A stretch of 64,000 nucleotides of DNA from Planctomycetota bacterium (GTDB lineage: Bacteria; Planctomycetota; GCA-002687715; CAIWVZ01): contig JBGANV010000002.1 of assembly GCA_044222185.1 (NCBI GenBank), positions 64,001-128,000 of the forward strand, written 5' to 3'. The notes under the pieces were generated by a model. That model did not search any database, was not told the DNA's origin, and saw only the letters and a list, made by a program, of their open reading frames with translations. Below, in pieces: positions 4,325-23,822 of the stretch. The position numbers were made by a program, and so were the translations under genes. Every line of letters begins with the position of its first letter. Position 1 is the first letter of the stretch.

Positions 4325-4378
4325 GACGATCCTCCAACGCCCGTGCGCACAATCGCGCACGATCAGCGCTGTGGAGTG

Positions 4379-4404
4379 ATCGCTTGCTGGACGGCCCGTT
4401 GCGC
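4379..4404 (-). promoter_or_regulatory. Putative sigma-28-like promoter upstream of the PLA2-like gene
   Basis: Minus strand GCGCAAC-N14-GCGAT; one of five copies of this motif. Confidence 0.5.
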
Positions 4405-4442
4405 GACGGCGGCACCGCCAGGCCCTCACCCGAGCCGATCGA

Positions 4443-5612
4443 TCAACCCGCCGCGAGCGGAAGATCCCAGCTCCAGGATGCACCATCCTTCGGCTTGGAC
4501 TCGCGCGCTTCCCACGGAAGGGTTCGACCGTCGTCTTCGTAGCGCTCCCGCGCCCACTGATAGACGGCTGCCAATGCGTCGTGCAACTCCAACGGCGCCC
4601 AGCCTCCTTCGCGCACCGTGTAGAGACTGCGGGCGAGTTCCCGGTCGACCTTCACCGGAACTCCCGCGCGAAGTGCGATGTCGCGCAGGGCCAGGGCGTT
4701 CCCGTCTTCGGCTTTCACCCAGACACGCGGCGCACCTTCCGTCGGGTCGAACCGCAGGCCGACGAAGTAATGCGTCGGATTCATCACTCCCAGGTCCGTA
4801 TCCGGGGCTCGCTGCATCTTCCGCAGTTGCTCTCGGAACTCGGCCTGCGCGCGATGCTTCATCTCGCGAACCTCTGGAGAGCCGAGCTGATCCTTGATCT
4901 CCTCCTTCAGCTCCTTCTCCGACATGCGCGCGTCCACTCGGAACTTCCGCATCCGTCTGAGCAGGTCGACGAAGCCGAGACCGCCGAACGCACCGAGTAC
5001 GGCGCTGACGAGCGTGCCGGCCATGGCGCCGGTCGCTTCGACGGCAGCGATGGGGTCCGCACCACAGGTCCCGAGGAGCGTCGGGAGACGGTTCTCGAGG
5101 ATCGCGAAGGTCGTCCCGGCGACGGTGAGGAACTTGACCACCGTGAATGCGAACTCGACGCGCCCTTCTGGAGACAGCATGAGCATGCGCTTCAACTGGT
5201 CGCCGTTGAACAGCCGCTCGAACTTCGGACTGATCGACTCGAACGTGAAGATCGGCCCGACCGCCGGCAGGAGCCGTATGAACGACGCGAGCGCGCCGGC
5301 CATGGCCGCGGCGACGAGCGTGGGCCAGAGTGCCGTCACGGCTTCACCGGCCGTGCGGAGGATCGACAACTCCACGAGACCTCGCGCCGGCAGCTCATCG
5401 TTCCCGGCAGCTCCGATGGCTTCGTTCAAGGCGCGGACCAGCGGCCTGGTCACGGCCCCCACCGAGTTCGCGAGGCCGCCGATCGTGACGGCGACGACGA
5501 AGAACCCGGTGAAGTCCGCCGAGCCCGCAGGGCCCTGCCCGCGCTTGCGCATCTCGTCCAGGCGACGCGGGGTCGGCTCGTGTGGTTTCTCTTCCGTCTC
5601 GTCATCGGCCAC
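4443..5612 (-). CDS. sctU: T3SS export apparatus switch protein SctU (FlhB/EscU family)
   Basis: N-terminal EEKPHEPTPRRLDEMRKRGQ, four TM segments, RMSEKELKEEIKDQLGSPEV, autocleavage motif NPTH; GTG start at 5612. Confidence 0.93.
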   Translation of the reverse strand: MADDETEEKPHEPTPRRLDEMRKRGQGPAGSADFTGFFVVAVTIGGLANSVGAVTRPLVRALNEAIGAAGNDELPARGLVELSILRTAGEAVTALWPTLVAAAMAGALASFIRLLPAVGPIFTFESISPKFERLFNGDQLKRMLMLSPEGRVEFAFTVVKFLTVAGTTFAILENRLPTLLGTCGADPIAAVEATGAMAGTLVSAVLGAFGGLGFVDLLRRMRKFRVDARMSEKELKEEIKDQLGSPEVREMKHRAQAEFREQLRKMQRAPDTDLGVMNPTHYFVGLRFDPTEGAPRVWVKAEDGNALALRDIALRAGVPVKVDRELARSLYTVREGGWAPLELHDALAAVYQWARERYEDDGRTLPWEARESKPKDGASWSWDLPLAAG

Positions 5613-5619
5613 GACAGAC

Positions 5620-6411
5620 CTATTCCGTAATGAACGGGGCAAGGAGGCGCGGCAGGTCGTCGATCGTCAACGTCACGATGGCCGCCGCGGAGAAGAAGAC
5701 GATCAGCAGCCCGAGCCACGGCTTCAGCGTGAACCCGAGGAAGAAGAGCCCGCCGGGACCGAGCGGAGCGATGCGGTTCAGCAATCCCAAGGCGATGTCC
5801 ACGATGAACATGGTCGCGACCGCCGGGATCGCCAGGCGAATCGCCAAGAGGAACGTCTCACCGGCGAGCGTCGTGAGTCCAGCGACGGTCGCGTCGCCCG
5901 TCGCTCCGCCAGGTCCGTGACCGGGTGGAATCGCCCGGTAGCTCCGCGCGAGACCTGCGGCGAGGTAACCAAGCCCCCCCAGCGACGCGAACGTCGCCAG
6001 TTCGAGCTGGAGCAGGAACGGACCGAGGGGCGAGGACTGGGCCTGGGTCCACGGATCGATGAAGTTCGCGAATTTCACATCGCGCGCGACGTCGATCAGG
6101 TCGCCGGTTCCGGCCACGATCTCGAACACGAGACGCACCGCGACGGCGATGGTGATCCCCGTGGCCAGTTCGGAGCCCATGGCGAGGCCGAATTCGAAGC
6201 CGAACTCCGGCATGGGCTGCGCCCCGAGGCCCGGGGCGATCGCCAGGGCCAGGAGCAAGCCGGCACCGATCCGCACGGTCTGCGGCGCCTGCGGACCAGC
6301 GAACACGGGCGTCGCGACGATCACGGGCATCACTCGCGCGAGGACGAGAGCGATCGCCTCGATCCGCGGAACTCCGCTCACCGCACGCAAGACGCCGAGG
6401 ATTGCATCCAC
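5620..6411 (-). CDS. sctT: T3SS export apparatus subunit SctT (FliR family)
   Basis: LARV...PVF, AGTGDLIDVAR, LAIPAVATMFIVDIALGLLNRIAP; located between sctS and sctU. Confidence 0.9.
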   Translation of the reverse strand: MDAILGVLRAVSGVPRIEAIALVLARVMPVIVATPVFAGPQAPQTVRIGAGLLLALAIAPGLGAQPMPEFGFEFGLAMGSELATGITIAVAVRLVFEIVAGTGDLIDVARDVKFANFIDPWTQAQSSPLGPFLLQLELATFASLGGLGYLAAGLARSYRAIPPGHGPGGATGDATVAGLTTLAGETFLLAIRLAIPAVATMFIVDIALGLLNRIAPLGPGGLFFLGFTLKPWLGLLIVFFSAAAIVTLTIDDLPRLLAPFITE

Positions 6412-6438
6412 GATGATCGACTCGTCGGCGGCTCGCGG

Positions 6439-6708
6439 TCAGCGGCCGATCTCGGCGACGCCGCGGAACATCTCGCCGGCAAACTGGACCAGCTGCTCGA
6501 GGGCGGCGAGGCCGAGTCCGGCGATCACGGCGTACGCCGCGATGGTCTTGACGACGACGCTGATCGATTGCTCCTGAACCTGGGTCGCCGCCTGGAACAC
6601 ACTGACGATCATGCCGATCGCCGCGACCAGGACCACGACCGGCGCACTGAGCAGCAACGACAGGTAGAGGGCCTCTTGGGCCACGCGCACCGCTTGTTCC
6701 ATGGCCAT
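6439..6708 (-). CDS. sctS: T3SS export apparatus subunit SctS (FliQ family)
   Basis: ALYLSLLLSAP...VSVFQAATQVQEQSISVVVK signature; 89 aa. Confidence 0.93.
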   Translation of the reverse strand: MAMEQAVRVAQEALYLSLLLSAPVVVLVAAIGMIVSVFQAATQVQEQSISVVVKTIAAYAVIAGLGLAALEQLVQFAGEMFRGVAEIGR

Positions 6709-6722
6709 GATTTCACCGCCCT

Positions 6723-7391
6723 TCAGGCGTAGCCGCGAGTCAAACCGAAGAGGACGAGTCGCCAGCCGTCGGCCAGCACGAATAGGAGCAGCTTCAACGG
6801 CAACGTGATGCTCGTGGGCGTGAGCATCGAGGCCCCGACCGCCAGCAAGATGTTCGTCACCACGAGGTCGATCACGAGGAAGGGAACGAAGAGCAGGAAG
6901 CCGATCTGGAATGCCTCTCCGAGCTCGGTGAGGAGAAACGCTGGCGCATCGACCGTGAAGAGCGCGACCACGGGTCGGTAATCGTCCCCACCGTCGAGGA
7001 CGCCGGAGGACTCCGCTCGAAGGCCCAGGAAGAGTTCACGGTTCTCGATCGAGCTGTTCTTGATGAGGAACTCGCTCAACGGTTCGGCGACGGCGCGAGC
7101 CATCTGCGGGTACTTCGTCGCGCGCTCGACGGGCGGCAGCTCGACGATCGGCCTCAGCCGCTCGACGGCAACTCCGACGACGGGCGCCATGATGTGAAGA
7201 CTGAGGACGAGGGCGATCCCCGCGATGACGCTGTTCGGCGGCGTCTGTTGTGTGCCGATCGCCTGTCGAAGCAGGCTGCCGACGACCATGAGCTTCGCGA
7301 ACGAGGTGACGATCGTCAGGATGAATGGAGCGAGGCCGAGAAGGCTCAGCGCAATCACCGTCTCGAAACCGATTCCCATGCCGTCGTTCAT
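6723..7391 (-). CDS. sctR: T3SS export apparatus subunit SctR (FliP family, no cleavable signal peptide)
   Basis: TSFAKLMVV..LLRQAIGTQQTPPN, PAFLLTELGEAFQIGFLLFVPFLVIDLVV, LPLKLLLFVLADGW. Confidence 0.95.
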   Translation of the reverse strand: MNDGMGIGFETVIALSLLGLAPFILTIVTSFAKLMVVGSLLRQAIGTQQTPPNSVIAGIALVLSLHIMAPVVGVAVERLRPIVELPPVERATKYPQMARAVAEPLSEFLIKNSSIENRELFLGLRAESSGVLDGGDDYRPVVALFTVDAPAFLLTELGEAFQIGFLLFVPFLVIDLVVTNILLAVGASMLTPTSITLPLKLLLFVLADGWRLVLFGLTRGYA

Positions 7392-7864
7392 GCCGGCTCC
7401 TTCTCCGAAGGCCCGCGGGACCGCCCCGTCGTGAATCCGAGCCGGGACGCGAAATCGGCCCCGGCCAGCGTCGAGGGGACCGAAGAGCCCGCACGAGTGC
7501 CAAGTCGCGTCAGGCCGGTCTCGGACGCAGCGATCATCTCGACCCCGTCGTCGACGCGAACGAGGTACAGCGATCGGCGCGGCTCCAGCCGAAGGACGTC
7601 GATGATTTCCAGACGTCCGCCTCGGGACCGGGTCGTCGGCGAACCACGTCGGCGCAGGACCCGCGAGGCGACGAAGAACGCCGCGAGGATCACCAGGAGC
7701 GCGCCACCCGTCTTCAGGATCGACGCGCCGTACGACGGCGCACCGAGCGGGTTCGGCCCAGGCACCATGGTCCCCGTGCGGGTCACCAAGGGACGCGACG
7801 TGGCGACCTCGGACAGCTGTTGGAGCCGGGGCGCATCCAGGAAATCAGGGTGGATCGGATTCAT
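7388..7864 (-). CDS. fliO: FliO-family export-gate assembly chaperone
   Basis: One TM helix (ALLVILAAFFVASRVLRR), then LEIIDVLRLEPRRSLYLVRVDDGVEMIAASETGLTRL; overlaps the sctR start, as in fliO-fliP. Confidence 0.8.
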   Translation of the reverse strand: MNPIHPDFLDAPRLQQLSEVATSRPLVTRTGTMVPGPNPLGAPSYGASILKTGGALLVILAAFFVASRVLRRRGSPTTRSRGGRLEIIDVLRLEPRRSLYLVRVDDGVEMIAASETGLTRLGTRAGSSVPSTLAGADFASRLGFTTGRSRGPSEKEPA

Positions 7865-7904
7865 GGTCTCGGCGGACGGTCACCGACTACCCGCCGTCCG
7901 AACT

Positions 7905-7931
7905 ATCGCGATTCGCCCTCCCGCGTTGCGC
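7905..7931 (-). promoter_or_regulatory. Putative sigma-28-like internal promoter upstream of fliO-sctRSTU
   Basis: Minus strand GCGCAAC-N15-GCGAT(AG) in the 113-bp gap between sctQ and fliO. Confidence 0.6.
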
Positions 7932-7977
7932 CACACGGCGCGCGGCTCGGGGATTTGCGGGCGAGCCCCCACGTCCG

Positions 7978-9069
7978 TCACGCCGTCACGGCTGGCAGCA
8001 CCCGCACTCCCCGGCCGTTCTCGTGAACGGCGAAGTCGACGGCTCGAGGCGGAAAGCCATCCGCAACCAGCCAGGCGGGCGCGGCGGGATCCAACGTCAG
8101 GCGCAGGCGCGTCGCCGACGCCATGTGGCTGAACGTGGCGAAGTCGAGCGCGTGCGTTCCGGCGACGACGTACGCGGCGCAGATGTCCGCCCGGCCGTTC
8201 GGGACGTGAGCCACCTCGATCTTCGGGTCCGCCCGCAACTCCACTTCGAGCTCGAGCGGCGTCGCGCGAGACGCTTGCGCGGGAGCGATCGCGAAGCCGG
8301 TCTCGCTGACGAGCATGCCGTGGTTCCCCTCGGCCTCGCTCGACGCGCTCCGCCCCAGTTCCACGAAGTCGCCTGCCTCGATCATCCGGAGCTCGTGCAC
8401 GCGAGCGCCGAAAGGCAAGACCCATCGCACCGTGACGAGCTCGGTCGATCCGACGGAGAACGGGTCGCCTGGCAACCCTCGGAGCAGCGAGCCGACGTCC
8501 GGCGGAACACGTACCGGGCGTGTCCACCAGGTCGCACTGCCCCGACGCGCGCCGACGACGACGTCGAGCGGGATCCCCGACAGCCCCGCCGTCTTCACGC
8601 ATCTGTCCGCCTCGGGGCCCTCCAGAAGTCGCGTGGCGCCCAATCCTGGAGCGCCTGCGTCGAGCCGTCGGCTCCGCGCCTCGCCGAGCGCGTCCAGCAG
8701 GGTCACGAGACCAAAATCGAGGATCCCTCGCTCGCGTTCCGTGAGAGGTCCGGGCATGGGACCGTCGCCGACGGCCTCACGCATCCGATCGACGAGGATC
8801 CGCGCGAGGAACTCGTCGATGCTGACGAATGACGCCACCCCCGCTCCGTCGAGGAACTCGACGACACCGACTTGTGATCGCATGTCGACCGGCGGTGGTC
8901 GCCGCGAGACGGCGACCGCGACGTGTGCCGAAAACGCCGACCGCCCGGCCTCGTCCAGATCGCGAAGCACGTCCATCGCAGCAGCCCATTCCGTCGCCGT
9001 GAAGTCGCGTGTCGCGAGGCGGCGCACGGCGGCCTGGCTGAGTCGTGTCCATTCCTCGTGACTTCGCAT
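7978..9069 (-). CDS. sctQ: Divergent SctQ (FliM/FliN-like sorting-platform protein)
   Basis: Two degenerate SpoA-like segments (ELRMIEAGDFVELG; PAWLVADG...AVHENGRGVRVL); located between the sctP-like gene and fliO. Confidence 0.7.
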   Translation of the reverse strand: MRSHEEWTRLSQAAVRRLATRDFTATEWAAAMDVLRDLDEAGRSAFSAHVAVAVSRRPPPVDMRSQVGVVEFLDGAGVASFVSIDEFLARILVDRMREAVGDGPMPGPLTERERGILDFGLVTLLDALGEARSRRLDAGAPGLGATRLLEGPEADRCVKTAGLSGIPLDVVVGARRGSATWWTRPVRVPPDVGSLLRGLPGDPFSVGSTELVTVRWVLPFGARVHELRMIEAGDFVELGRSASSEAEGNHGMLVSETGFAIAPAQASRATPLELEVELRADPKIEVAHVPNGRADICAAYVVAGTHALDFATFSHMASATRLRLTLDPAAPAWLVADGFPPRAVDFAVHENGRGVRVLPAVTA

Positions 9070-9147
9070 GTCGCATACCCCCGTGACGAGACTCCCACTT
9101 CGCTGGCTCGATCCGCGAGGAACCCACGTCGTGGTCGCCACGTCGGT

Positions 9148-9978
9148 TCAAATCGACCCGTCGGCACTCCACGACTCCACTTCGATGCCTCGCCGCCGCA
9201 TCTCTTCCACGAGAGCCGTGCCGTGGCGCATTCCTTCGTCGCCCCCCGTCCGTGGCCCGTTCAGTCTCAGTCGGACCTTCCGCGGCCCCACGGCCGTGAC
9301 GAAGACCTCGACGCCGCCGAGGACCTGGTCGGCGAAGCCCACGCGCATCTCGTTCCGGCCCGACTCGTCGCGGCCGAACTCTGCGAATCGCACGAGCCGG
9401 CCGAAGTCCCCGCGGGACAAACCAGCTGGAGGTCGAACATCCGTTGGCGACTGCGCCGGTCCGGGGGCGAGGGGCGGTTCCGGGTCGACGGTCGTTCGCG
9501 GGGCATCCCCACCCGGATCGTCCGCCGATGGCCTCGATCGACCCTTCGCCGCCGTGGGGCGCTCCGCTGCCCGCGCATGGGCACCATCAGAAACCTCGCG
9601 GTGGTCCCGCGCGCGATGACGAGCGGCGGCAGGGTGCATTCGGATGTGATCGGCGACGTCCGGATCGCTCGTCTCCTCTGCCGACGGATCACCTCCCGCG
9701 CTCGCGGCCGTGTCATCCACTTCAGACGCCGGGTCCTCACGGTCGAAAGCCACTCCGCCGACCTGCACGTTCGCAATGATCGACCCGGCTTCGCCGGCGT
9801 CGCCCTCCATCGGACCGACGTCGTCGTGGACGTCCTCCGCACGCTCGGGGTTGAGTCGCTGCAGGAACTCGCGGCCCTCGCGCACCGCGTCTCGACGGAC
9901 GCGATCGTGCCGAGCGGGCACGCCGCGATCGCGACGGAGCGCACGAGGCGGATCTTTTGGCAACTCGAAGAAACTCAT
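9148..9978 (-). CDS. SctP/FliK-like length-control (ruler) protein
   Basis: Long low-complexity Pro/Asp/Ala N-terminus plus a compact C-domain (EMRVGFADQVLGGVEVFVTAVG..VRLRL...LVEEMRRRGIEV); located between sctO and sctQ. Confidence 0.6.
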   Translation of the reverse strand: MSFFELPKDPPRALRRDRGVPARHDRVRRDAVREGREFLQRLNPERAEDVHDDVGPMEGDAGEAGSIIANVQVGGVAFDREDPASEVDDTAASAGGDPSAEETSDPDVADHIRMHPAAARHRARDHREVSDGAHARAAERPTAAKGRSRPSADDPGGDAPRTTVDPEPPLAPGPAQSPTDVRPPAGLSRGDFGRLVRFAEFGRDESGRNEMRVGFADQVLGGVEVFVTAVGPRKVRLRLNGPRTGGDEGMRHGTALVEEMRRRGIEVESWSADGSI

Positions 9979-10550
9979 GTTCGCCGTCCTCCGGACCCCG
10001 GGCTGCGCTTCCGCCGATCCAGCCTCACGAGGTTCTCGTCCTCGCGCGTCGATTCGGTGATGGCCTCCTGGCGCGCCAGGAATTCCTCGATCTCGTCCAT
10101 GCGGATCGCATCGCAGATCTCGAACTGCCTCGTCGCGGTAGCGAGTTCACATCGAGCGGTCACGACGTTGTCCCACGCCCGGCGCATGACGTTGATCTGA
10201 TATCCACGCAAGCAGTTCGTCGGCCGGTTGCCGTCCGCGGTCGCCGCGTCCCCCCAGATGCGTGTTCGAAGGACTTCGAGCCAGTGTTGCTGAGCTGCGA
10301 GGAGGCCGCGGATCAGCGGATCCGGTTGAGCACCCTGGATCGCACCAAGGCGCGCGGTTCGCGTACGAAACCGTCGTGCCGCTCGCGCCGCCAGGCGCCG
10401 GAGCACGTCCTCCCCCCGTCGGGCCGCGCGATAGGCAGCACGTGCGCTGGCCAGCCGCGTCTCGGCCTCCTCGAGGTCGCGACGGACCCGGTCCAGCCTG
10501 AACTCCAGGCTGAACACGAACCCCTTCGGGTTTTGAACGACCTCCGTCAC
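9975..10550 (-). CDS. SctO/FliJ-like coiled-coil stalk protein
   Basis: FVFSLEFRLDRVRRDLEEAETRLA coiled coil, ending EDENL; immediately downstream of the ATPase. Confidence 0.65.
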   Translation of the reverse strand: MTEVVQNPKGFVFSLEFRLDRVRRDLEEAETRLASARAAYRAARRGEDVLRRLAARAARRFRTRTARLGAIQGAQPDPLIRGLLAAQQHWLEVLRTRIWGDAATADGNRPTNCLRGYQINVMRRAWDNVVTARCELATATRQFEICDAIRMDEIEEFLARQEAITESTREDENLVRLDRRKRSPGSGGRRT

Positions 10551-10553
10551 GGA

Positions 10554-11954
10554 TCACCTCCTGGTCTGAGCGCAAATGGACCCGAGGAGTTGCAGCGTCC
10601 GATCCAATGGAACGGGTGGATCCGACTTGTTTTGAGGCAGGAGCGGAGACGGCACGGTCTCCGTCCCGCCGAAGAGTGCGCGCCCGGTGATGGCCGCGAG
10701 CCGACGGTCGAAAGCCGCGCGCCCCTCGACCGGCCTGAAGTCGTCAGGGTTGCGCCGAAACTCGTACGCGGAGCGCAGGGTCTCCTCCACGAGCCGCACG
10801 CACGCGATTCGCCGTTCGGCCTCCTCGGGCGATGCGCACTCCGCATCGATCACCGCGTCCCGCACGCGACTGACGCTGTCGAAGACGTCGATACCCGGAC
10901 GCCACCGGACCCGGTCGCCCAGCGGTCGCAGATAGAGGTGCCCGTCGAGGAGGCTCTTCACCTCTTCGGCGACGACGTCCAGTGAGCCGTCGGTGGAGTC
11001 CATCAGCACCGTGTAGATCGCCGTGATCGACCCCTGCTCCGTGTTTCCGGCACGTTCGAACAACCGTGGCAGCTCGGCGAACACGGATGGCGGATAACCT
11101 CCACGCCCGGGAGCCTCCTCGAGGGCCAACCCGAGATCTCTCACGGCGCGCGCAAACCGCGTCACCGAGTCCATCAAGAGCAGGACGTCGCGGCCCATGG
11201 CACGCTCGCGTTCCGCGATCGCCGTGGCGATGTGCGCCGCGCGCAGGCGGAGGACGGCCGGCTCGTCGGACGTGGAGACGACGACGGTCGCCTGGGCGCG
11301 CGCAGCCCCCAGATCGTTCTCCAGGAACTCCCTCACCTCACGTTGCCGTTCCCCGATCAGCGCGACGACGATCGAGCGGTTCGTCCTGTCCGCGTCGGCG
11401 TCCAGGCCGCCCTGGCCGAGACGCGTGTCTCGGAAGTAACGGGTGAGCATGCCGAGGAGCGTGCTCTTGCCGACGCCGGCGCCCGCGAAAATCCCAACGC
11501 GCTGGCCTTTGCCGAGCGGAAACAAGGCATCGATGATCTTCACCCCGGTCACGAGTCTTTCCCTGACGATCGGCCGCGACAGCACGTCCATCGGGGTCGG
11601 CTCGATCGCCGCGAGGTTGGGCCTGGCTCCGTGGTCCGAGAGGCGTTGGGTGATCCGGCCGTGTGCGTTCAGGACGCATCCGCGGAGGTCTCCGTCGATC
11701 TCGGCGAGCTCACCGCCGGAAGCGGGGATGACCCGCGCACCTTCCTGCAGGCCCTGAAGCGAGCCGAACGGCATGAGGTGGACGACCTCGTCCGAGAAGC
11801 CGATGACTTCCGCGGGCACGCTCGACGCCGAGTTCACGACGATCGCACACCGTTCGCCCAGACGTGCGTCGGGCAGCGCGGCCTTGATGACGACCCCGGA
11901 CTTGGACGCCGCGCGTACGATCCCCTCGCGGCGGACTCTTGCGGACGACGTCAT
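10554..11954 (-). CDS. sctN: T3SS ATPase SctN (FliI family)
   Basis: GQRVGIFAGAGVGKST (Walker A), LLLMDSVTRFARA (Walker B), GYPPSVFAELPRLFERAG, GSITAIYTVL, LDGH. Confidence 0.95.
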   Translation of the reverse strand: MTSSARVRREGIVRAASKSGVVIKAALPDARLGERCAIVVNSASSVPAEVIGFSDEVVHLMPFGSLQGLQEGARVIPASGGELAEIDGDLRGCVLNAHGRITQRLSDHGARPNLAAIEPTPMDVLSRPIVRERLVTGVKIIDALFPLGKGQRVGIFAGAGVGKSTLLGMLTRYFRDTRLGQGGLDADADRTNRSIVVALIGERQREVREFLENDLGAARAQATVVVSTSDEPAVLRLRAAHIATAIAERERAMGRDVLLLMDSVTRFARAVRDLGLALEEAPGRGGYPPSVFAELPRLFERAGNTEQGSITAIYTVLMDSTDGSLDVVAEEVKSLLDGHLYLRPLGDRVRWRPGIDVFDSVSRVRDAVIDAECASPEEAERRIACVRLVEETLRSAYEFRRNPDDFRPVEGRAAFDRRLAAITGRALFGGTETVPSPLLPQNKSDPPVPLDRTLQLLGSICAQTRR

Positions 11955-13577: not shown

Positions 13578-13608
13578 TGCACGATGTCCGCACCTGGTTC
13601 AGGCAGAC

Positions 13609-15074: not shown

Positions 15075-15081
15075 GGGAAGG

Positions 15082-15504: not shown

Positions 15505-15534
15505 GGTGCTGCCTCCGGCCGAGTCGAAGCCGGC

Positions 15535-16026: not shown

Positions 16027-16062
16027 GACTCTTCCCTGGCCTCGACGGCCTGCGCCACGTCA

Positions 16063-16347: not shown

Positions 16348-16400
16348 GACGTTGCTCCTCATGCTCCGCGCCCAGGATCGGGCGAGGCTCGCTGGTGATG

Positions 16401-16427
16401 ATCGGATCCGAGTCGGAGGCGTTGCGC
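16401..16427 (-). promoter_or_regulatory. Putative sigma-28-like promoter upstream of the needle gene
   Basis: Minus strand GCGCAAC-N15-CCGAT in the gap between the sctE-like and sctF-like genes. Confidence 0.6.
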
Positions 16428-16454
16428 CGCCACCCCGGATGACCCGCTCTGACC

Positions 16455-16727
16455 TCAGGCGTTTCCGAGCTTCCGCAGCTCCGCCACGAATGCCCCCGCT
16501 GCGCCGAACGCATGGTCGACGCGGTCGATGGCTTCCGCATCGTCGGTGCAGACCGAACGTGCCGACGCGAGCCAATCCCGCACTTCGCCGAGGAACCCGT
16601 CGAGTTCGGAACAGCGATCGCCGCTCCAGGACGCCGTCAGCATCCGGTGCAGGACGTCGCCCCCTCGAAGGGGTTCCGCGGGCTTGGATTCCGGCTGATC
16701 TGCCGGCGCTCGATCTGACGCGTTCAT
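16455..16727 (-). CDS. Small helical protein, SctE/CdsE-like needle co-chaperone
   Basis: 90-aa helical-hairpin-like ORF (..HAFGAAGAFVAEL) directly upstream of the needle gene; GAGGAG RBS; assigned mainly by synteny. Confidence 0.5.
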   Translation of the reverse strand: MNASDRAPADQPESKPAEPLRGGDVLHRMLTASWSGDRCSELDGFLGEVRDWLASARSVCTDDAEAIDRVDHAFGAAGAFVAELRKLGNA

Positions 16728-16740
16728 CACCTGCTCCTCC

Positions 16741-18111
16741 TCATCCGTTGGTCGCTTCATGGATCAGCCGGCGCATCTCGGCGACGACGCGATCGGCGGT
16801 TTTCTGAGTGGACCCGAACGGGTCGGCGGCGTCGTCGCCGCCCCGGTGTTCCGCCGCATCCAACGCCGCGCGCATCCCGTCCGAGTCGTGCGCGGCGAAT
16901 GCCGCGAAGAACCTCTGCGTCGCGTTCCAGAACGGCGAGAACCCCATGTCGACCGTCCCAGCCGTCGTTGCGACGAACTGGGAGAACCCGGCCAGGTCGT
17001 CAAGCGTGTCCTTCGTTCCTTCCTGGAGGAACCGCTGGGTGTAGACGACCAGCAGCCCGGCAACGAGCGGATCGTAGTTCGCGGCGAGCGCGGTCGGTCG
17101 CGCACGGAAATCGAGGAACGCCTCGAACTGAACGCGTGCCTTGTCGAATTCGCCGATCTCCATGTAGGTCGCGCCCAGTCGGAACTTCACGACGAACAAG
17201 TTCTTGTCGATCGTGAGAACTTCGCGCAGACGCTCGGCGTAAGCGCGCATGCGCGCGACGTACGCGGGATCGTGGGCCTTGACCGCCGGTCCCATGGCAT
17301 CGACGGATTCATCGAGATCCGTTGCGGCGCGCTCCGCCTGGATCAGGGCGCGGCTCGCCTCGAAGACGTCCGAGCGCCACGTCGCGCCAGGAACTCCGTT
17401 GCCGGGACCCCGAGCCGCGACGTTCCACGACCAGCTCTCCTTCAACCACGTCGCGACGATGCGCTTGGCAGCCGTCGGAGTGATCGTGGGGTCGTCTCGC
17501 AGGCGGCTCGAGTTGAACACTGCCCCGATGTTCGCTGCGAAGTTCTTCCCGATGATCGTTCCGAGGAACGAGAGGAACGCCTCGCCCGGCGGTTGGTCCC
17601 ACGCCTCGAGGGACGACGTGGCGACCTCCGCGCTCTCGAGGTAGCGGCGGGCTTCTGCGTACTTGCCTTCGAGACGCGCGATCAGGGCGAGCCCGATCCA
17701 CGCAGGCGGCCAGTCCGGGCAGATCCGCAGGGCATCGCCGAAGTGGTTGAACGCAAGCGCGTGTGCGCTCTCGGCCGCCGCGCCGCGCGGATGCCGCAGC
17801 GCCACGGCGTCGAGGCGCATTTCCCCGAGCTTCGAGTGGAACAAGAAGCACTGGGGGTCGTGTTGGATCGCGTCATCGAGCGGGCGGAGAACCAGACGCC
17901 GGCGTCCGCTCTCGAGTTCGTCTTGCGACAGTGGCGCGGAGTGGAGTTCGAACCAGCCCCGTCGCGCTTCCTCGTATTTCGTCTGACCGGCCTGGCTCAA
18001 GAACAGCGCATCCCGGTCCGGGATCTCGCGCGAAGCACAACCAGGCACGAAAACGATCACCAACGTGACGATCGCCATCACGACTGCGCGGCAGGTGGAC
18101 TCGAGGGTCAT
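16741..18111 (-). CDS. TPR-repeat lipoprotein, first gene of the T3SS operon
   Basis: Hydrophobic signal ending VFVPGC; TPR motifs (AWIGLALIARLEGKYAEA; FRLGATYMEIGEFDKARVQFE). Confidence 0.75.
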   Translation of the reverse strand: MTLESTCRAVVMAIVTLVIVFVPGCASREIPDRDALFLSQAGQTKYEEARRGWFELHSAPLSQDELESGRRRLVLRPLDDAIQHDPQCFLFHSKLGEMRLDAVALRHPRGAAAESAHALAFNHFGDALRICPDWPPAWIGLALIARLEGKYAEARRYLESAEVATSSLEAWDQPPGEAFLSFLGTIIGKNFAANIGAVFNSSRLRDDPTITPTAAKRIVATWLKESWSWNVAARGPGNGVPGATWRSDVFEASRALIQAERAATDLDESVDAMGPAVKAHDPAYVARMRAYAERLREVLTIDKNLFVVKFRLGATYMEIGEFDKARVQFEAFLDFRARPTALAANYDPLVAGLLVVYTQRFLQEGTKDTLDDLAGFSQFVATTAGTVDMGFSPFWNATQRFFAAFAAHDSDGMRAALDAAEHRGGDDAADPFGSTQKTADRVVAEMRRLIHEATNG

Positions 18112-18215
18112 TGGACGCTCCATGGAGGGTTCGCCCCGCGGTCGTTGCGGGCCCGACGGTGCAGAGCAGCGATCACCGAGCCCGTGACGGGCCAGGCCAC
18201 TGCCTCCGCAGTGCA

Positions 18216-18242
18216 ATCGCATTTGCTGGCGCTCCGTTGCAC
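18216..18242 (-). promoter_or_regulatory. Putative sigma-28-like promoter of the T3SS operon
   Basis: Minus strand GTGCAAC-N15-GCGAT. Confidence 0.6.
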
Positions 18243-18304
18243 GAGCCTCTCGAAGCCGGGGTCCCGCTGGGACGCGTGGATTCCGCCCGGACCCGCACGA
18301 CTCG

Positions 18305-18331
18305 GCGCAACGACGCTCCGCGTTCCGCGAT
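18305..18331 (+). promoter_or_regulatory. Putative sigma-28-like promoter of the divergent FHA/sigma operon
   Basis: Plus strand GCGCAAC-N15-GCGAT, about 70 bp upstream of the ATG at 18404. Confidence 0.6.
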
Positions 18332-18403
18332 CGTTGAGGATGATCTGCCGCATCGCCGGCAGGGCCCGCGGACCGCGTTCATCACGAGAGACAGGAACAC
18401 GCC

Positions 18404-20254
18404 ATGGCCGAGACCCTGATCGTCCGTCACGCTGCCAACTCGACCCTCGCTGGCCGGGAGCAACGGTTCACCAAGCCCGTCGTCCGCATCGGGCGGCGTC
18501 GCGGCAACGACGTCGTGTTCGACGAAGCGCAGGATCGGCTGGTCTCCGCCGTCCACGCGGAAGTCCGAACGGAGCCCTCCGGCGTCACGCTCGTCGACCT
18601 CGAGTCCAGCAACGGGACCTTCGTCAACGGGCGAAGACTGCGGCCGCACCAACCCTCGCGCATCGGCCCGTCGGACGACGTGCAGCTGGGCGGACCCACG
18701 GGCCCGCGCCTGTCGCTGTTCGCCGATGGTCCGCCTCCGTTCGCTCGGGGCGCCGACGAATTCGGCAGCGCGACGATCATCAATCGCCCGAAGGAACGTT
18801 CTGCGTCCCCCGCCATTCCCGCCGTTCCCATGCACGGCCAGAAGCAGGGCATCGGTCAGGCGACGCTCTTTCGCGTCGTCAGCGCCGCAACGGCCCACGA
18901 GCGACGGCGCGTCGTGTGGATCGCGACGGGCCTGCTCGTCGTCGCCGTCGGAGCGGCTGCGGCGTACTTCTTCTTTTGGCCCCCGCCGATACCACCCGTC
19001 GTCGTCGACGCGGATGCGGCGGCACTGAGCCGCAAGTTGAACGAGTACAAGGGCTCGGTCTACGTCGTCGCGCGACGATCGCGTGACCAGAACAACAACG
19101 TCACGGACGATCCGTTCGGAACGGCATGGTCCTGCGCCCCCGGACTTCTCGCGACGAATGGCCACGTGGCACGGGCGTTCGCCAACCTGAAGCCGGGAGA
19201 GACGCTGATCGCGCGGAGCGGCGCGACACCGCCGGTCGACCTCATGCTGGTCGGGCAACGGACTCACCCTGGCTACCTCGAGTTCGAGGATCTGGTGAAG
19301 CGGTACACGCTCAACCTCTCGGCCGCCCCATTCGAGTCGATCAAGGGCGGGTGCGACATCGCCGTGCTCGAGGTCGACCCGGGGTACGTCCCGCGACAAG
19401 CGCCCCCGCTGCCGATCGCCTCGGACGCAGAGCTCGGCTCCATGAAGCAGATGGACTCGGTCGGGTTCATCGGCTTCACCATGGAGAACCGCGGCCTGAA
19501 CATGGAGCGCCCGGTACCGATCATGGCGAACGGCGGGATCTCGAGCATCTCCGACTTCTTCCTGGGCGCCGCACCTTCGGACCGTGGCGAACTGATCGCG
19601 TTCACTGCCGCCGGCGGAGGCGGCGCAAGTGGGAGCCCGGTCATCGCCGCCAGTGGGAAAGTCGTCTGCCTCCTGTATGCCGGCGACGTGACGACTTCCG
19701 GACACTCGGGTCCACGAGTCAGTGTCCCCGGCGCCCAAACGTACGGCCAACGCGCGAACATCCTGCGCGAGCTCCTCGATGGGAGCATGTCGGCCCGACA
19801 GCCGATTCGGCGCGCCAGCTGGGAGCAGTCACTCCGACCGCTCTTCGAGCAAGCGAACGCGGAGTTCATCAACGCCGCGCTCAAGGACCAATCCGTCGCG
19901 CTGCGGCGCGCCGGCAAGATTCGCTATCCGGACAACGCCGTCGTCAGCGACGTCTGGGAGGAGGTCGACTCGAGGAAGGTGCGGATGAGCGGAGTCGGCG
20001 CGGCGAACGCGGCGACGGTCGAGATGCGGACGCTCCGCACGGGCTTCCACTTGATCATCGCCGTTCCGACGACTGGCCCGGCGAACATCGACATCATCGC
20101 GCCGGGTGCCGAGGACACGGCGGGAGACTTCATCCCGATAATCGGTCAACGCATCGCCCCTGGTCAGCCGGCAGTCATCCGTGTCGTGAACGCCGACACG
20201 CTCCTCACCGGCGCAGTCGAAGCGAACGTCAAGTGCTTCCGGCTGAAGGTCTGA
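18404..20254 (+). CDS. FHA domain - TM - trypsin-like serine protease
   Basis: FHA motifs IGR...VSAVHA...DLESSNGTFVNG; TM VVWIATGLLVVAVGAAAAYFFF; catalytic triad TNGHV, DIAVL, GASGSPV. Confidence 0.88.
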   Translation: MAETLIVRHAANSTLAGREQRFTKPVVRIGRRRGNDVVFDEAQDRLVSAVHAEVRTEPSGVTLVDLESSNGTFVNGRRLRPHQPSRIGPSDDVQLGGPTGPRLSLFADGPPPFARGADEFGSATIINRPKERSASPAIPAVPMHGQKQGIGQATLFRVVSAATAHERRRVVWIATGLLVVAVGAAAAYFFFWPPPIPPVVVDADAAALSRKLNEYKGSVYVVARRSRDQNNNVTDDPFGTAWSCAPGLLATNGHVARAFANLKPGETLIARSGATPPVDLMLVGQRTHPGYLEFEDLVKRYTLNLSAAPFESIKGGCDIAVLEVDPGYVPRQAPPLPIASDAELGSMKQMDSVGFIGFTMENRGLNMERPVPIMANGGISSISDFFLGAAPSDRGELIAFTAAGGGGASGSPVIAASGKVVCLLYAGDVTTSGHSGPRVSVPGAQTYGQRANILRELLDGSMSARQPIRRASWEQSLRPLFEQANAEFINAALKDQSVALRRAGKIRYPDNAVVSDVWEEVDSRKVRMSGVGAANAATVEMRTLRTGFHLIIAVPTTGPANIDIIAPGAEDTAGDFIPIIGQRIAPGQPAVIRVVNADTLLTGAVEANVKCFRLKV

Positions 20255-20261
20255 AGCCGCC

Positions 20262-21971
20262 GTGCACGCAAGAACACGTGAATGGGCTCGCGATGGTCGA
20301 CGGAGCGCGCTCGTCGCCGTGGCGATCGCCTTGGCGGCGTGCGTCATCGACCGCCCGGCTCGCGCCCAGGCCGAGCGCACCGTGCCCGCCGAGTTGGCGC
20401 AAGCAGCAGACGCACACGCCTACCGGAAGGCGGCGGAAGGGCTCGACGAGCTCCTTCGCGGATGCGAGGACGACACGTCCCGAACGGTGGTGGAACGGCG
20501 ACGCCTGCGCGCGCGGTGGTTCGAGTCGGCCGTCGCGGCCGAGCCGGGGGACGTCTTGTTGCGTGCCGCGGCCGTTCGCGCGCTGAAGGCCCACGCCCGC
20601 GACCTCGACCTTTCGGACCCGAAACGCGCCGACGTCGAGCGACGCGCCGAGGCGCTCTCGGCGTCCCGGGTGCCGACCGAGTCAGCGCCCGCACCGGCGG
20701 TCCGCCGAGGCTCGAGCGAGTCGGAGGTCGTGGCGTCGAGACTGCGATCGGTGATGAGAACTGCCATCTCCGCGTCCGACAGCGCGTCGATCGACGTGCG
20801 CGTCGCACTCATCGACGAGGCCCGCGCCGCCCTGGCGCGGATTGCCGTTCCGCAAGCGCTTCGGATCGAGGCGGCCGCCTGTCGTGCTCGCATCGCGCTC
20901 GCGGCCGGCGACTGGCGCGAGGGCGTCGCCGCCGCCGAGATCCTGCGGCCGCTCCGCGGGGCCGCGTCCGTCCCTTCTGGCTCGGATCTCTCGAGGACGC
21001 TCGATCTCATCGAGGATCGACATTGGTTCGACGCGATCGCGGACGTCGAACGGAGGGAGAGCCAGAAGGCCGCTGCCATCACGCTGCTGGAGGTTCGCGC
21101 CCGACGGGAGCGACGCCTCGTCGAGGCGGGATTCGAAGCCATGCCCCGCGGCGGTCTGGCGGACGGCGGATCGGGAATGCCTCGCCTGGTGAAACATCGT
21201 CGCACGGGCCTCGTGTTCGTCCTCATCGAACCGTCGGCCGTCGAAGACGGTCGCCTCGAAGCGGCCTTCGAATCGGCGACGAGCGCCGATGATCCATCGG
21301 AGTCGCCGGGGCCAGCGTTCCAACCGATCGCGTCGCCGGTCTACGTCGGGGTCTGCGAAGTCTCGAATGCTGCCTACCGGCTGGTCGTCCCCGGCCACGC
21401 CGAGTCGGGCCTGCCGAAGATCGATGATCCGGCCTGCTCGGCATCGAATGCTGCCTATCCCGCCACCGCCATCTCGCACGACGAGGCCTCGGCGTTCTGC
21501 CTGCGCTTCGGCTTCACCCTGCCCTCGCTCGCCGAGTGGGTCGCCGTCCTGCGTGCGTCGCACTCGGACCTGGACCTGGCGAACGGCGCGTTCGTGGCCG
21601 CGGCCCTCGCGCCGCGATTCGGCCCGCTTCCGAACTTCTGGGACACGTCCGCCGTCGCGCGACTCCGACACCCGACGGGAGGAGAGCCGTTCCCCTGGGA
21701 TGACCGTGCCGTCGTCTTGCGGCGCGCCACGTGCGAAATCGGCGATGCGTCGAAGGTCACGCCAGTCGACGTGCTCGGGAACGTCGCCGAGTGGCTCGAG
21801 CCGAGTCAACCGCATCAACCGCCAATCGCGCTCGCTGCGGGAGGCTCATGGCTGACTCCGCTGCCTGCGACGCTCGCCGACCGCGCGCGGCTCCTCTTCG
21901 CGCGTCGACACGAAGCTGACGAGCGGTTCGCGGACGTGGGGTTCCGGCCCGCGTTCCGAATCGACCCCTGA
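20262..21971 (+). CDS. Exported protein with C-terminal FGE-sulfatase/SUMF1 (C-type lectin-fold) domain
   Basis: Signal-like ALVAVAIALAAC...AQA; EVSNAAY, LPSLAEW, DVLGNVAEW, GGSW and VGFRP motifs. Confidence 0.8.
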   Translation: MHARTREWARDGRRSALVAVAIALAACVIDRPARAQAERTVPAELAQAADAHAYRKAAEGLDELLRGCEDDTSRTVVERRRLRARWFESAVAAEPGDVLLRAAAVRALKAHARDLDLSDPKRADVERRAEALSASRVPTESAPAPAVRRGSSESEVVASRLRSVMRTAISASDSASIDVRVALIDEARAALARIAVPQALRIEAAACRARIALAAGDWREGVAAAEILRPLRGAASVPSGSDLSRTLDLIEDRHWFDAIADVERRESQKAAAITLLEVRARRERRLVEAGFEAMPRGGLADGGSGMPRLVKHRRTGLVFVLIEPSAVEDGRLEAAFESATSADDPSESPGPAFQPIASPVYVGVCEVSNAAYRLVVPGHAESGLPKIDDPACSASNAAYPATAISHDEASAFCLRFGFTLPSLAEWVAVLRASHSDLDLANGAFVAAALAPRFGPLPNFWDTSAVARLRHPTGGEPFPWDDRAVVLRRATCEIGDASKVTPVDVLGNVAEWLEPSQPHQPPIALAAGGSWLTPLPATLADRARLLFARRHEADERFADVGFRPAFRIDP

Positions 21972-22100
21972 CCCGCCGTCGTCCGTGAGGTCGCCGACCG
22001 GCCGATCGCATGGCGCCATCAACGGTGCGCGGTCCGCGCGTCGCGATCGAATTCACTCGATGCACAACGGGGCGCGCGGTTTCACGCTGATTGATTCGTC

Positions 22101-22994
22101 ATGTCCCTCCAACCAGACCTCGGCTCGCCGCCGCGGCCGCGCCAAGGCGCCCGTTCGAGCGTCGGCCCGCCCCCGTCGAGTGAGTCCACAAGCAGCTTGC
22201 AGGATCGCTGCGTCGAGTTGCGCTTCGGGGCTCGACCGCCGCAGGTACCGGTCGTGATCGATCCCGACGGCGCGAGGCCACCTGACGACGACGGCGCCGT
22301 CCACGTCCGACTGACGCGCGACGGAGCGCAGGTCTACGGCGCCGACGGCCGATCCGCCGGATCGATTCGCAAGGGCGAGCTCGTCGGCGTCGACGGATGG
22401 TCCGTGGCTCTGGTCGAGGTCGCCTCCGACACCGGTCCCACGTCCTTCGTTCAGGGTTTGCTCCAAGCGCGGTTGGTCCTCGATGCGGGCCCCTCCACTG
22501 GCGGGCATCCGCGCGAGCGCGCACTCCGACCCGATCCGGACCGTGTCGTCACCGTCGGGAGAGGGCCGGACTGCACGATCGTCATCGACGACCCGAAGGT
22601 CTCGCGGCGCCAGTTCGAGATCACCTATCGCGCGGCTCTCCAGGACTTCTGGCTTCAGAACGTCAGCCAGAACGGGACGCGCGTCGACGGCCTCCTGATC
22701 ACGGGCTCCGACGGACGCCGTCTCGTGCACGGCGATGCCATCGCCGCGGGCGATTCCACGCTCACGTTCTTCAACGCATGCCGATTGCCGGACCTTCCGG
22801 CCAACGGTGCCGCCCAGGATCCCATCGATCCACCGCCGGAGCCCGCCCGACCGCAACCGCGCAAGAAGGGCAAACGATCGGATGCGACGGCTCGACGTCG
22901 CCGCGATGCGGTCGCCTTCATCGGCCTCGTCCTGGCGCTGGTCGGCCTCATGGGATTGCTCATCTGGACCCTCACTTCTCCAGGTCACCAGTAG
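22101..22994 (+). CDS. FHA-domain membrane protein (degenerate + canonical FHA, C-terminal TM)
   Basis: TVGRGPDCTIVIDDPKVSRRQFEI...SQNGTRVDG; C-terminal FIGLVLALVGLMGLLIW. Confidence 0.85.
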   Translation: MSLQPDLGSPPRPRQGARSSVGPPPSSESTSSLQDRCVELRFGARPPQVPVVIDPDGARPPDDDGAVHVRLTRDGAQVYGADGRSAGSIRKGELVGVDGWSVALVEVASDTGPTSFVQGLLQARLVLDAGPSTGGHPRERALRPDPDRVVTVGRGPDCTIVIDDPKVSRRQFEITYRAALQDFWLQNVSQNGTRVDGLLITGSDGRRLVHGDAIAAGDSTLTFFNACRLPDLPANGAAQDPIDPPPEPARPQPRKKGKRSDATARRRRDAVAFIGLVLALVGLMGLLIWTLTSPGHQ

Positions 22995-23008
22995 GCACAG
23001 GTACTGCC

Positions 23009-23794
23009 ATGACGAAGCCCGAACCGCAGATGATGGATGTGACCTCCGGTGTGCCGCTGACGCCAGAGGAGGCCACTCTCGCCGCCAATCACGTGGGTTA
23101 CGCGGAGAGCCTCGCGAGGCTGGTCAAGAGCCGCTTGCCCCGTCACGTCGACGTCGATGAGCTCATCGGCGCGACGTACGCCAAACTCCTGGAGCTCGTC
23201 CGGCGCTTCGATGCCGGCCGTGGCGCGACGTTCACGAGTTTCGCGTACCTGCCGCTCCTCGGAGCAGCCTGGGACGCGGCACGGAAACTCGCCCGCCACG
23301 ACCGCCAGGTGCAACGGATCATTCGGACGCATCGCGCCCACCTCGAGGTCGGAGCTGCCGAAGGCATCGCAGGCCCGGTCGCGGGAGAGACGCCTGAGGA
23401 GACGTTCTCCCGCGCGGTGCGCAGCCGCGTCGTCGTCCACATGATCTCCCAGATTCCCGATGAGGATGACTCGATGCCGGAACCCTTCGTCGATGAAACA
23501 TCCGCGGCGGCCCATGCGCAGGAACGTGAGGACGCCTCGATCCGCGAGCGCGTCCGCGCGAGGCTGCGTTCGTTGATCGCGAGGCACCTGGAGGCGGCGG
23601 AGGAGAAGGAACGCCTCGTCATCCGCGAAGTCCTGCTGAAGGGCCGCACCCTCGACGACGTCGCGACCGAGCTCGGCGGAATCAACAAGTCGAACGTCGC
23701 CCGTCGGCTTCAGAAGGCCGTCGACCGTCTGGCCGAGCGGCTTGGGCCGGACCTGCAGGCTGGCGACGGTTATTGGGCCACGAGCCCGGGTTGA
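23009..23794 (+). CDS. Sigma-70 family RNA polymerase sigma factor, FliA/WhiG-like
   Basis: LPRHVDVDELIG...LLELVRRFDAGRGATFTSFAY..LGAAWDAAR (region 2); ERLVI...GRTLDDVATELGGINKSNVAR (region 4 HTH). Confidence 0.85.
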   Translation: MTKPEPQMMDVTSGVPLTPEEATLAANHVGYAESLARLVKSRLPRHVDVDELIGATYAKLLELVRRFDAGRGATFTSFAYLPLLGAAWDAARKLARHDRQVQRIIRTHRAHLEVGAAEGIAGPVAGETPEETFSRAVRSRVVVHMISQIPDEDDSMPEPFVDETSAAAHAQEREDASIRERVRARLRSLIARHLEAAEEKERLVIREVLLKGRTLDDVATELGGINKSNVARRLQKAVDRLAERLGPDLQAGDGYWATSPG

Positions 23795-23822
23795 ATCGCG
23801 CAGGCGGCCCCCCGCGCCCGCG

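Follow-up and report, generated by a model that had tools for sequence, protein, structure and literature searches.

The window analyzed here is a stretch of 64,000 nucleotides (contig C6, positions 64001-128000) of a Planctomycetota genome, referred to as G000, which comprises 7,084,855 bases in 16 contigs with 67.5% G+C. It carries part of an island encoding a non-flagellar type III secretion system (T3SS), which spans C6:49.4-87.8 kb, that is window positions of about -14,600 to 23,800, and crosses the left window edge. A short two-block element, GCAAC and CGAT separated by 15 or 16 nucleotides (nt) and hereafter called the box, was found to recur before the genes of this island. Judging from its sequence and placement, the box is likely to be the -35/-10 promoter of an alternative sigma factor, which would drive nearly every transcription unit of the island, and we infer that the boxes are promoters of one regulon built around the T3SS. 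A sigma factor derived from the FliA/WhiG lineage and encoded at window 23009-23794 probably reads the box, an assignment which we hold with moderate confidence.

An initial annotation of the window had reported five boxes of the form G[CT]GCAACG-N13/14-[GC]CGAT, and all five are present at exactly the coordinates and on the strands which it gave, including the spacer one base shorter in the box at 4379-4404. They are all intergenic, each facing a start codon 40-104 nt downstream. The same annotation held that the box was absent from the other intergenic regions it had checked; a sixth box, at 15545-15569, was however overlooked because its -10 block is ACGAT. The boxes and two further matches to the pattern are as follows (ORF, open reading frame; aa, amino acids).

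4379-4404, minus strand: box, GCGCAACG-N13-GCGAT with a GCAAC-to-CGAT spacer of 15, 54 nt upstream of the ATG at 4324; an alternative ORF downstream of it is 2838-4352
7905-7931, minus strand: box, 40 nt upstream of the ATG of a fliO-like gene at 7864
15239-15263, minus strand: pattern match inside a 140-aa ORF, probably chance or a weak internal site
15545-15569, minus strand: sixth box, GGCGCAACG...ACGAT, 40 nt upstream of the orf140 ATG at 15504
16401-16427, minus strand: box, 53 nt upstream of the orf94 ATG at 16347
18216-18242, minus strand: box, 92-104 nt upstream of the start of a TPR gene
18305-18331, plus strand: box, 72 nt upstream of the ATG at 18404, heading an operon that encodes FHA-trypsin, FGE-sulfatase-like, FHA and sigma proteins
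32732-32756, minus strand: pattern match inside a 1009-aa ORF (31075-34104), probably chance

A comparison of the box with shuffled sequence had been named beforehand as a check, and the enrichment in the window withstood it: the form GCAACG-N13/14-SCGAT occurs 7 times, whereas 100 dinucleotide-preserving shuffles averaged 0.54 and never reached 7. The strict form G[CT]GCAACG-N13/14-[GC]CGAT is found 13 times in the whole genome (both strands), and 5 of these 13 matches fall within 13,953 bases (Poisson 9e-11). Among the other 8, at least 5 lie inside long ORFs and one, at C7:514324-514350 (L043:6324-6350), stands about 60 nt before an unrelated sigma gene of the extracytoplasmic function (ECF) type (PF07638) that is followed by a Ser/Thr kinase gene. 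This ECF-kinase pairing is a planctomycete one, and the match before it is probably due to chance. Between window 4000-23800 and the contigs from four DNA runs we counted 80 differences; none of the 40 listed lies in a box, the nearest being 18300 A>C, five bases before the box at 18305. Such differences are too few for footprinting the boxes.

The relaxed form GCAAC-N14-16-CGAT was then scanned over C6:30-100 kb, with annotation of C6:44-64 kb, and six more boxes were recovered to the left of the window.

C6:51742, minus strand: box, 69 nt upstream of the start (C6:51672) of sctV, the second FHIPEP gene of the genome (C6:49396-51672, minus strand, 12.3 kb left of the window)
C6:51771, plus strand: box before a divergent FHA/YscD-type gene (Pfam Yop-YscD_cpl), probably sctD
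C6:54306: box before a DUF1521 protein gene (C6:54404-55750; L041:10404-11750)
C6:55889: box before orf411 (411 aa)
C6:57330: box before the gene of a 1074-aa Ser/Thr kinase, which adjoins an ECF sigma gene
C6:60647: box before this ECF sigma gene (C6:60683-61525, about 2.5 kb left of the window), 11 nt upstream of its first ATG

The presence of a box before sctV had been foretold, sctV being named as a remote member of the regulon; the regulon itself is larger than the five boxes first described, with about 12 candidates. The form GCAAC-N15/16-CGAT has 243 matches genome-wide, 14 of them in C6:51,742-82,331 where 1.1 would be expected (Poisson 1.5e-11), a count unapproached by any other 32-kb stretch of the genome. 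We retained 12 of these 14 as candidate promoters and left out those at 57072 and 79239, which are inside ORFs. All 12 candidates stand 11-104 nt upstream of start codons and are oriented toward them, and the spacer is specific: for GCAAC-Nx-CGAT in C6:51,000-83,000, the counts for x from 10 to 22 are 1, 1, 0, 0, 0, 3, 11, 0, 1, 0, 0, 0 and 0, with 70-173 matches per spacer genome-wide. Spacer specificity, orientation and gene proximity thus all have the anatomy of a promoter. The aligned sites give [CG][CT]GCAAC[G]-N15/16-[GA]CGAT[C]A, the spacer being counted from GCAAC to CGAT. In leave-one-out scoring the weakest candidates are those at 55889 (13.9 bits) and 57330 (13.6 bits), the others reaching 16.8-24.3 bits.

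A position weight matrix built from the 12 sites returned 11 island hits of at least 20 bits, all of them with spacers 15/16, a result which is circular for the island. Outside the island it gave 9 hits of at least 20 bits with spacers 15/16, of which 2 are intergenic and oriented, with no excess over wrong spacers; the regulon therefore appears to be essentially local. The two best matches outside the island, at 22.6 bits each, are both intergenic and oriented: C1:799082 faces a 215-aa ORF without family match, and C7:692628 faces a 994-aa protein with a CarboxypepD_reg domain. They are possible, unproven, remote members of the regulon.

The sctV and sctD-like promoters diverge, and their -35 blocks overlap in a perfect 14-nt palindrome, GTTGCACGTGCAAC, at C6:51762-51775 (window about -12,238 to -12,225; L041:7762-7775), so that two polymerases could not occupy both simultaneously. 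This palindrome could also bind a dimer, and the box could then be the binding site of a transcription factor, either activator or repressor, with GCAAC and CGAT as contacts or half-sites. We consider this very unlikely, since the two blocks differ and are neither inverted nor direct repeats of one another, and since the orientation of the box always follows the downstream gene with the spacing of -35/-10 elements. Moreover, Pfam annotation, which covered 77 ORFs of window 1-26,600 and 17 ORFs of C6:44-64 kb, revealed no helix-turn-helix regulator besides two sigma factors. The palindrome is accounted for by back-to-back divergent promoters, and a divergent box pair also flanks sctV, without palindrome, in the island of another planctomycete (G401, below).

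We next consider the protein proposed to read the box. The sigma factor of 23009-23794 spans positions 5-223 of a 224-position profile, with the full-length group-3 architecture (sigma-2, sigma-3 and sigma-4), and the NCBIfam FliA models cover it over its full length, residues 22-246 aligning with model positions 16-237 of 241. In a profile search of PDB sequences, made with a profile of three close sequences, 7 of 9 hits were FliA, sigma-28 or WhiG and 2 were RpoS (best E 6e-13). Its AlphaFold model has a mean predicted local distance difference test (pLDDT) score of 71.8, sigma-2 and sigma-4 being confident, and 8 of the 9 Foldseek matches at E<=1e-3 are sigma-28, FliA, WhiG or RPSD chains aligned over 226-254 columns; an ECF sigma is named in none of the 50 Foldseek matches listed. 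The description of this protein as FliA/WhiG-like is thus sustained as regards kinship and architecture, by profiles, PDB and Foldseek alike. Membership of the family is not, the scores being 51.8 bits against a curated cut-off of 189.6 for TIGR02479 and 53.9 against 201 for NF005413, and the protein ranks sixth among the G000 matches to TIGR02479.

Close relatives of this sigma factor are rare. Among 1.84 billion representatives searched with HMMER, only P0005 (50% identity) and P0006 (48%) were close; in the next tier, 9 of the ten proteins scanned have FliA_WhiG as best specific family below the cut-off and one is a true FliA. No close relative was found in 40 related genomes (best 27% identity), a collection of 5.8 billion proteins gave only the window sigma itself and one 28% match, and a profile from the sigma alignment retrieved no locus from genome contigs or metagenome contigs. 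The best sigma match among the relatives, on G039:C534, was considered as a related island and rejected, as no T3SS homologues are found there. The genes next to the window sigma encode FHA proteins and non-flagellar T3SS components, not flagellar ones. No FlgM-like gene was recognised in general scans, which included no search aimed at FlgM.

Related islands were identified in three other Planctomycetota, designated G401, G020 and G043. The first came to light via locus L181, when fetched loci were searched with all island proteins; loci retrieved with the SctV alignment were mostly FlhA-like, and motif counts in metagenome loci were at chance level. The closest SctV relative is P0157 (54% identity).

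G401 belongs to a distant family (5.3 Mb, 53.5% G+C). Its contig C34 carries sctN (47% identity), sctJ, an orf94-like gene, a TPR gene, sctV, an FHA gene followed by the gene of a 223-aa sigma factor, a 1617-aa kinase gene, a DUF1521 gene (39%) and sctU/T/S/R. The sigma factor, 28% identical to that of the window, has the window sigma as its best G000 match (68.9 bits, against 60.5 and 58.5 for the two true FliA proteins of that genome). The pattern CGCAAC-N16/17-CGANAA has 22 matches in the G401 genome, 6 of which lie in 21 kb of the island; they precede sctV, its divergent neighbour, the orf94-like gene, a 131-aa gene, a 575-aa gene and the DUF1521 homologue, with an ATG visible 55-100 nt downstream of 4 of the 6. 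Their -10 blocks, CGATAA, CGACAA and CGAGAA, are by sequence of the sigma-28 type (consensus GCCGATAA).

G020, of the same order as G000 and a different genus (5.0 Mb), has an island with FHA-trypsin (33%), sctRSTU, DUF1521 (43%), orf411 (38%), sctV, sctN (50%), kinase (41%) and TPR genes. GCAACG-N13/14-SCGAT, a form defined on the G000 window only, has 21 matches in this genome and 4 in its 25-kb island (Poisson 4.9e-6), all 4 on the strand of the local T3SS genes; relaxed matches precede the DUF1521, orf411 and TPR homologues and a 120-aa gene. In G043, T3SS genes occupy C34:127-158 kb and an FHA-sigma-kinase operon lies at C34:77-81 kb on the same contig. The G043 sigma is 35% identical to that of G401, and G401-type boxes, single matches only, stand before the DUF1521 and orf94 homologues.

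A FliA-like sigma gene is found in or near all four islands, with one frameshifted and one 48 kb away, and the FHA gene directly precedes it in three (G000, G401 and G043). Clustering of the box is significant in three (G000, G020 and G401). The sigma-4 recognition helix is alike in five aligned sigma factors, G-[IV]-x-K-[SA]-[NT]-[VI]-[SA] with invariant G and K, which fits their shared GCAAC block.

The initial annotation overlooked a second sigma factor of the island, the ECF sigma of C6:60683-61525. This protein could instead read the box as an ECF-type promoter after activation via the adjacent 1074-aa kinase, in the manner of HrpL; the FliA-like sigma would then be one ECF target, itself reading other late promoters. 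We regard this as unlikely, although the ECF sigma is a serious rival. Its identity as an ECF sigma is secure, with 62.5 bits for sigma70-ECF (cut-off 42.9) and no regions other than 2 and 4, and the G020 island likewise has an ECF sigma beside a kinase orthologue. Passages of Casas-Pastor 2021 (PMC7826278) describe ECF32/HrpL-type sigma factors as conserved beside T3SS genes.

Several observations weigh against the FliA-like sigma as reader and for its rival, or simply against the former. The ECF sigma gene lies inside the island next to a Ser/Thr kinase gene and has an upstream box of 22.7 bits, at a distance of 11 nt from its first ATG or of 224 nt if the start of the 209-aa database gene call is taken. 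ECF sigma factors are typically autoregulated and use AAC...CG promoters, and the box fits this general type, in which some 16 nt separate AAC at -35 from CG at -10. On the side of the FliA-like protein, the middle (sigma-3) part of the window sigma model is of low confidence, with a pLDDT of about 50, and the island sigma factors are taken as orthologues on the strength of 25-29% identity, synteny and a reciprocal-best margin that is narrow. The G401 pattern was partly derived from that island, which inflates its P-value; the earlier-chosen form GCAAC-N15-17-CGAYAA places 3 of its 29 G401 matches in the island, and the G000 consensus is not exactly transferable to G401, where the spacer is one longer and the -10 block is CGANAA. 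Autoregulation of the FliA-like sigma, proposed from the start, is plausible in G000, where a box heads its operon, but is not conserved, as none was seen before the FHA-sigma operon of G401. In G020 the FliA-like sigma gene, next to the TPR operon, is readable only through frameshifts. The G043 sigma gene lies about 48 kb from the nearest T3SS gene found, and the strict G000 pattern is not enriched in that genome (2 of 85 matches on the island contig). Concerning G020, we noted that the sigma gene and sctR (C12:5200-5900 and 25109-25707) are each split over reading frames; since sctR is split too, this looks like assembly indel errors and not gene decay.

G000 by itself leaves the two sigma factors indistinguishable as readers, and it is the related islands which tip the balance to the FliA-like one. 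In G401, where boxes are present, the FliA-like gene is the only sigma-70-family gene in C34:238-300 kb, so that no ECF sigma lies within 62 kb, and the CGA[TCG]AA -10 blocks are of sigma-28 type. An ECF sigma occurs in only two of the four islands, G000 and G020, and these two are not orthologous, yet the same box is used: the G020 protein and the G000 ECF are 32% identical over 72 aa, and the G000 locus that the former matches best is C6:537878-538486. A search of 400 genomes of the phylum, in which only 6 candidates were scored for each genome, turned up no relative of the G000 ECF at E<=1e-18, and the collection of 5.8 billion proteins gave only this ECF itself and one 31% match. Taken together, the related islands favor the FliA-like over the ECF sigma as reader, although not conclusively.

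A separate flagellar gene set exists in G000, with flhA on C7 (828 bits), two flagellin genes on C1 and, on C10, a Flagellin_N match of lower score. The genome also has two bona fide FliA genes, C1:1905541-1906203 and C7:394594-395259, the latter adjoining flhA, which score 251.4 and 239.4 bits against the family cut-off of 189.6. TCAAG-N16/17-CGA[TC]A stands upstream of both flagellin genes and recurs at two more intergenic sites; canonical TAAA-N14-16-CCGATA has no match in the genome. The T3SS box and the flagellin promoters share the CAA and CGA cores and the spacing, so that the box looks like a local sigma-28 promoter with altered -35 flanks. This agrees with the initial proposal of a new -35 (GCAAC) read by a flagellar-type sigma, the box resembling the local flagellin promoters except for the bases flanking the -35 core. 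One of the two true FliA proteins might accordingly read the box and co-regulate the island with the flagellum, the more so given these shared cores and spacing. We give this little credence, as all 12 island sites have GCAAC at -35 and the 4 intergenic flagellar-type sites (spacer 16/17) have TCAAG, as the island has a FliA-like sigma of its own which recurs in related islands, and as box hits outside the island are no commoner than wrong-spacer hits and include no flagellar genes. The small probability that is left falls to something else reading or binding the box.

With the FliA-like sigma as reader, RNA polymerase carrying it would initiate within a few bases past CGAT, and the first start codon would follow 11-104 nt downstream. 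The units switched on would be sctV, the sctD-like gene, the DUF1521 gene, orf411, the kinase gene and the ECF sigma gene, together with the 197-aa ORF, fliO-sctRSTU, orf140, orf94, the TPR-headed operon and the FHA-sigma operon; the last of these encodes the sigma itself, which would establish positive feedback in G000. The activity of the sigma is probably gated post-translationally by the membrane-anchored FHA protein and the island Ser/Thr kinase. The FHA proteins encoded directly before the sigma genes (window 22101-22994; L181:7522-8295; L275:7220-8452) all have their FHA domain between an N-terminal domain and a C-terminal hydrophobic helix, a tail-anchor-like layout which resembles that of single-pass anti-sigma factors. 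This shared layout, and the presence of a kinase with all islands, suggest that the sigma would be controlled in a phospho-threonine-dependent manner. A wider reading, which we put forward only tentatively and think rather doubtful, is that this family of T3SS islands of free-living Planctomycetota kept a flagellum-derived FliA-type sigma for the whole machine, via GCAAC-N15-17-CGA, and replaced the FlgM checkpoint by an FHA/kinase phospho-threonine switch. The tail-anchored FHA protein would then hold or release the sigma in response to the island Ser/Thr kinase.

The non-flagellar T3SS was recognised from the Pfam families FHIPEP, ATP-synt_ab, YscJ_FliF, FliP, Bac_export_1/2/3, FliH and Yop-YscD_cpl, the core genes identified being sctV, sctN, sctJ, sctR, sctS, sctT, sctU, sctL and a sctD-like gene. 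Neither a secretin nor sctQ was recognised by Pfam among the 77 ORFs of window 1-26,600 and the 17 ORFs of C6:44-64 kb, and SctI- and SctO-like matches were weak (E 0.04 and 0.025). The island genes within the window are listed below.

3731-4324, minus strand: 197-aa ORF with a GGAGG ribosome-binding site, first labelled PLA2-like gene
4443-5642, minus strand: sctU (Pfam Bac_export_2)
5620-6411, minus strand: sctT (Pfam Bac_export_1)
6439-6708, minus strand: sctS (Pfam Bac_export_3)
6723-7391, minus strand: sctR (Pfam FliP)
7388-7864, minus strand: fliO-like gene (Pfam FliO), head of the fliO-like-sctR-sctS-sctT-sctU operon (4443-7864)
stop at 10554, minus strand: sctN ATPase (Pfam ATP-synt_ab)
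11951-12709, minus strand: sctL/FliH-like gene (Pfam)
12654-13577, minus strand: 306-aa ORF between sctL and sctJ
13609-14622, minus strand: sctJ (Pfam)
15082-15504, minus strand: orf140 (140 aa), with a homologue in G043
16063-16347, minus strand: orf94 (94 aa), first labelled needle gene
16741-18123, minus strand: TPR gene (Pfam), heading a long minus-strand operon
18404-20254, plus strand: protein with FHA and trypsin-like peptidase domains (Pfam)
20262-21971, plus strand: FGE-sulfatase-domain protein (Pfam)
22101-22994, plus strand: FHA protein with a predicted C-terminal membrane helix (Pfam and alignment)
23009-23794, plus strand: FliA/WhiG-related sigma factor, 261 aa, proposed reader of the box

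Verification of the labels "needle" and "PLA2-like" failed, as Pfam and PDB sequences yielded no match for either protein; the C-terminal 43 residues of orf94 are conserved, with 39% identity in G401 and 51% in G043. A DUF1521 protein is encoded in all four islands (39-44% identity) with a box-like site upstream in each. We take DUF1521 to be the self-cleaving domain of the rhizobial type III-secreted protein NopE1, and if so the DUF1521 protein is a good candidate for a secreted substrate.

Just past the sctU end of the island, a 535-aa ORF (window 248-1855, minus strand) combines a collagen triple-helix repeat with a phage tail collar domain. Right after the sigma gene, window 24109-24957 encodes a protein with an SdiA-regulated/phytase-like domain, and further downstream 24831-26513 encodes a PMT-family glycosyltransferase, both without a box. 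Third-position G+C is about 0.74-0.83 in the island genes and 0.85-0.88 in several flanking genes (window 4000-24000 compared with the rest). Among the 400 genomes sampled from the phylum, none yielded a close relative of the island sigma, the ECF sigma or SctV. Horizontal transfer may have brought in the island.

Dedicated sigma factors for secretion regulons are already known, from HrpL injectisomes and from FliA flagella. What would be new is a FliA-type sigma dedicated to a non-flagellar T3SS, with a conserved FHA/kinase module, in a phylum without such systems in the literature searched. Passages of Abby & Rocha 2012 list non-flagellar T3SS only in Chlamydiae, Proteobacteria and Verrucomicrobia, and we found no paper on a planctomycete T3SS or its sigma in the full-text literature; supplementary tables, outside this search, could list such systems. 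The box provides a testable map of the regulon which names its transcription units, and it points to box-preceded candidates for secreted proteins (the DUF1521 protein, orf411, orf94 and the 197-aa ORF). It also ties the T3SS to an FHA/kinase signalling module and bears on the carry-over of regulation when injectisome-like systems arose from flagella.

Among known systems, the likeness to FliA and to WhiG of Streptomyces lies in the sigma lineage, which is the same by sequence and fold, and in the encoding of the sigma together with a type III export machine. Flagellar class III promoters read by sigma-28 have the form TAAA-N15-GCCGATAA. The box has a -10 block likewise built on CGA (CGATAA/CGACAA in the G401 island) and a comparable spacing, whereas its -35 block is GCAAC in place of TAAA or TCAAG and the genes it precedes are those of a non-flagellar T3SS. 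Unlike FliA promoters, moreover, it fronts structural genes (sctV, sctRSTU and the sctJ-sctN operon) and not only late genes, and the upstream neighbour of the window sigma is a membrane-anchored FHA protein.

The hrp box of Pseudomonas syringae and Erwinia, GGAACC-N15/16-CCACNNA, is read by HrpL (ECF32), and the likeness there is that of one alternative sigma and one two-block box before T3SS operons and candidate secreted proteins. HrpL is however a group-4 (ECF) sigma, whereas the conserved sigma of the island is group-3-like and its box is GCAAC-N15/16-CGAT. A regulon of the HrpL/ECF32 type does not fit the islands, the ECF sigma being present in G000, absent from the G401 island and non-orthologous in G020, and the box being unlike the hrp box.

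Control of secretion by kinases and FHA proteins is known from PpkA/Fha1 in the H1 type VI secretion system of Pseudomonas and from PknD/CdsD in Chlamydia. Here too, FHA and Ser/Thr kinase proteins are encoded with the secretion genes (G000 and G401) or with the sigma (G043), and the G020 island has both; the difference is that in the island the FHA gene immediately precedes that of the sigma and encodes a protein with a membrane helix at its C-terminal end. Direct phosphorylation of an ECF sigma by a Ser/Thr kinase is mentioned in a passage of PMC7826278.

Chlamydia trachomatis, of the Planctomycetes-Verrucomicrobia-Chlamydiae (PVC) superphylum, is also comparable, as a non-flagellate bacterium with a sigma-28 whose alternative sigma factors are tied, in PMC10597470, PMC7482065 and PMC12282069, to late genes and type III-secreted effectors. 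The targets named there for chlamydial sigma-28 are hctB and tsp, whereas type III-secreted effectors are linked to sigma-54; the passages of PMC12282069 give no sigma-28 consensus sequence. The planctomycete island differs in that a single box would cover the whole machine.

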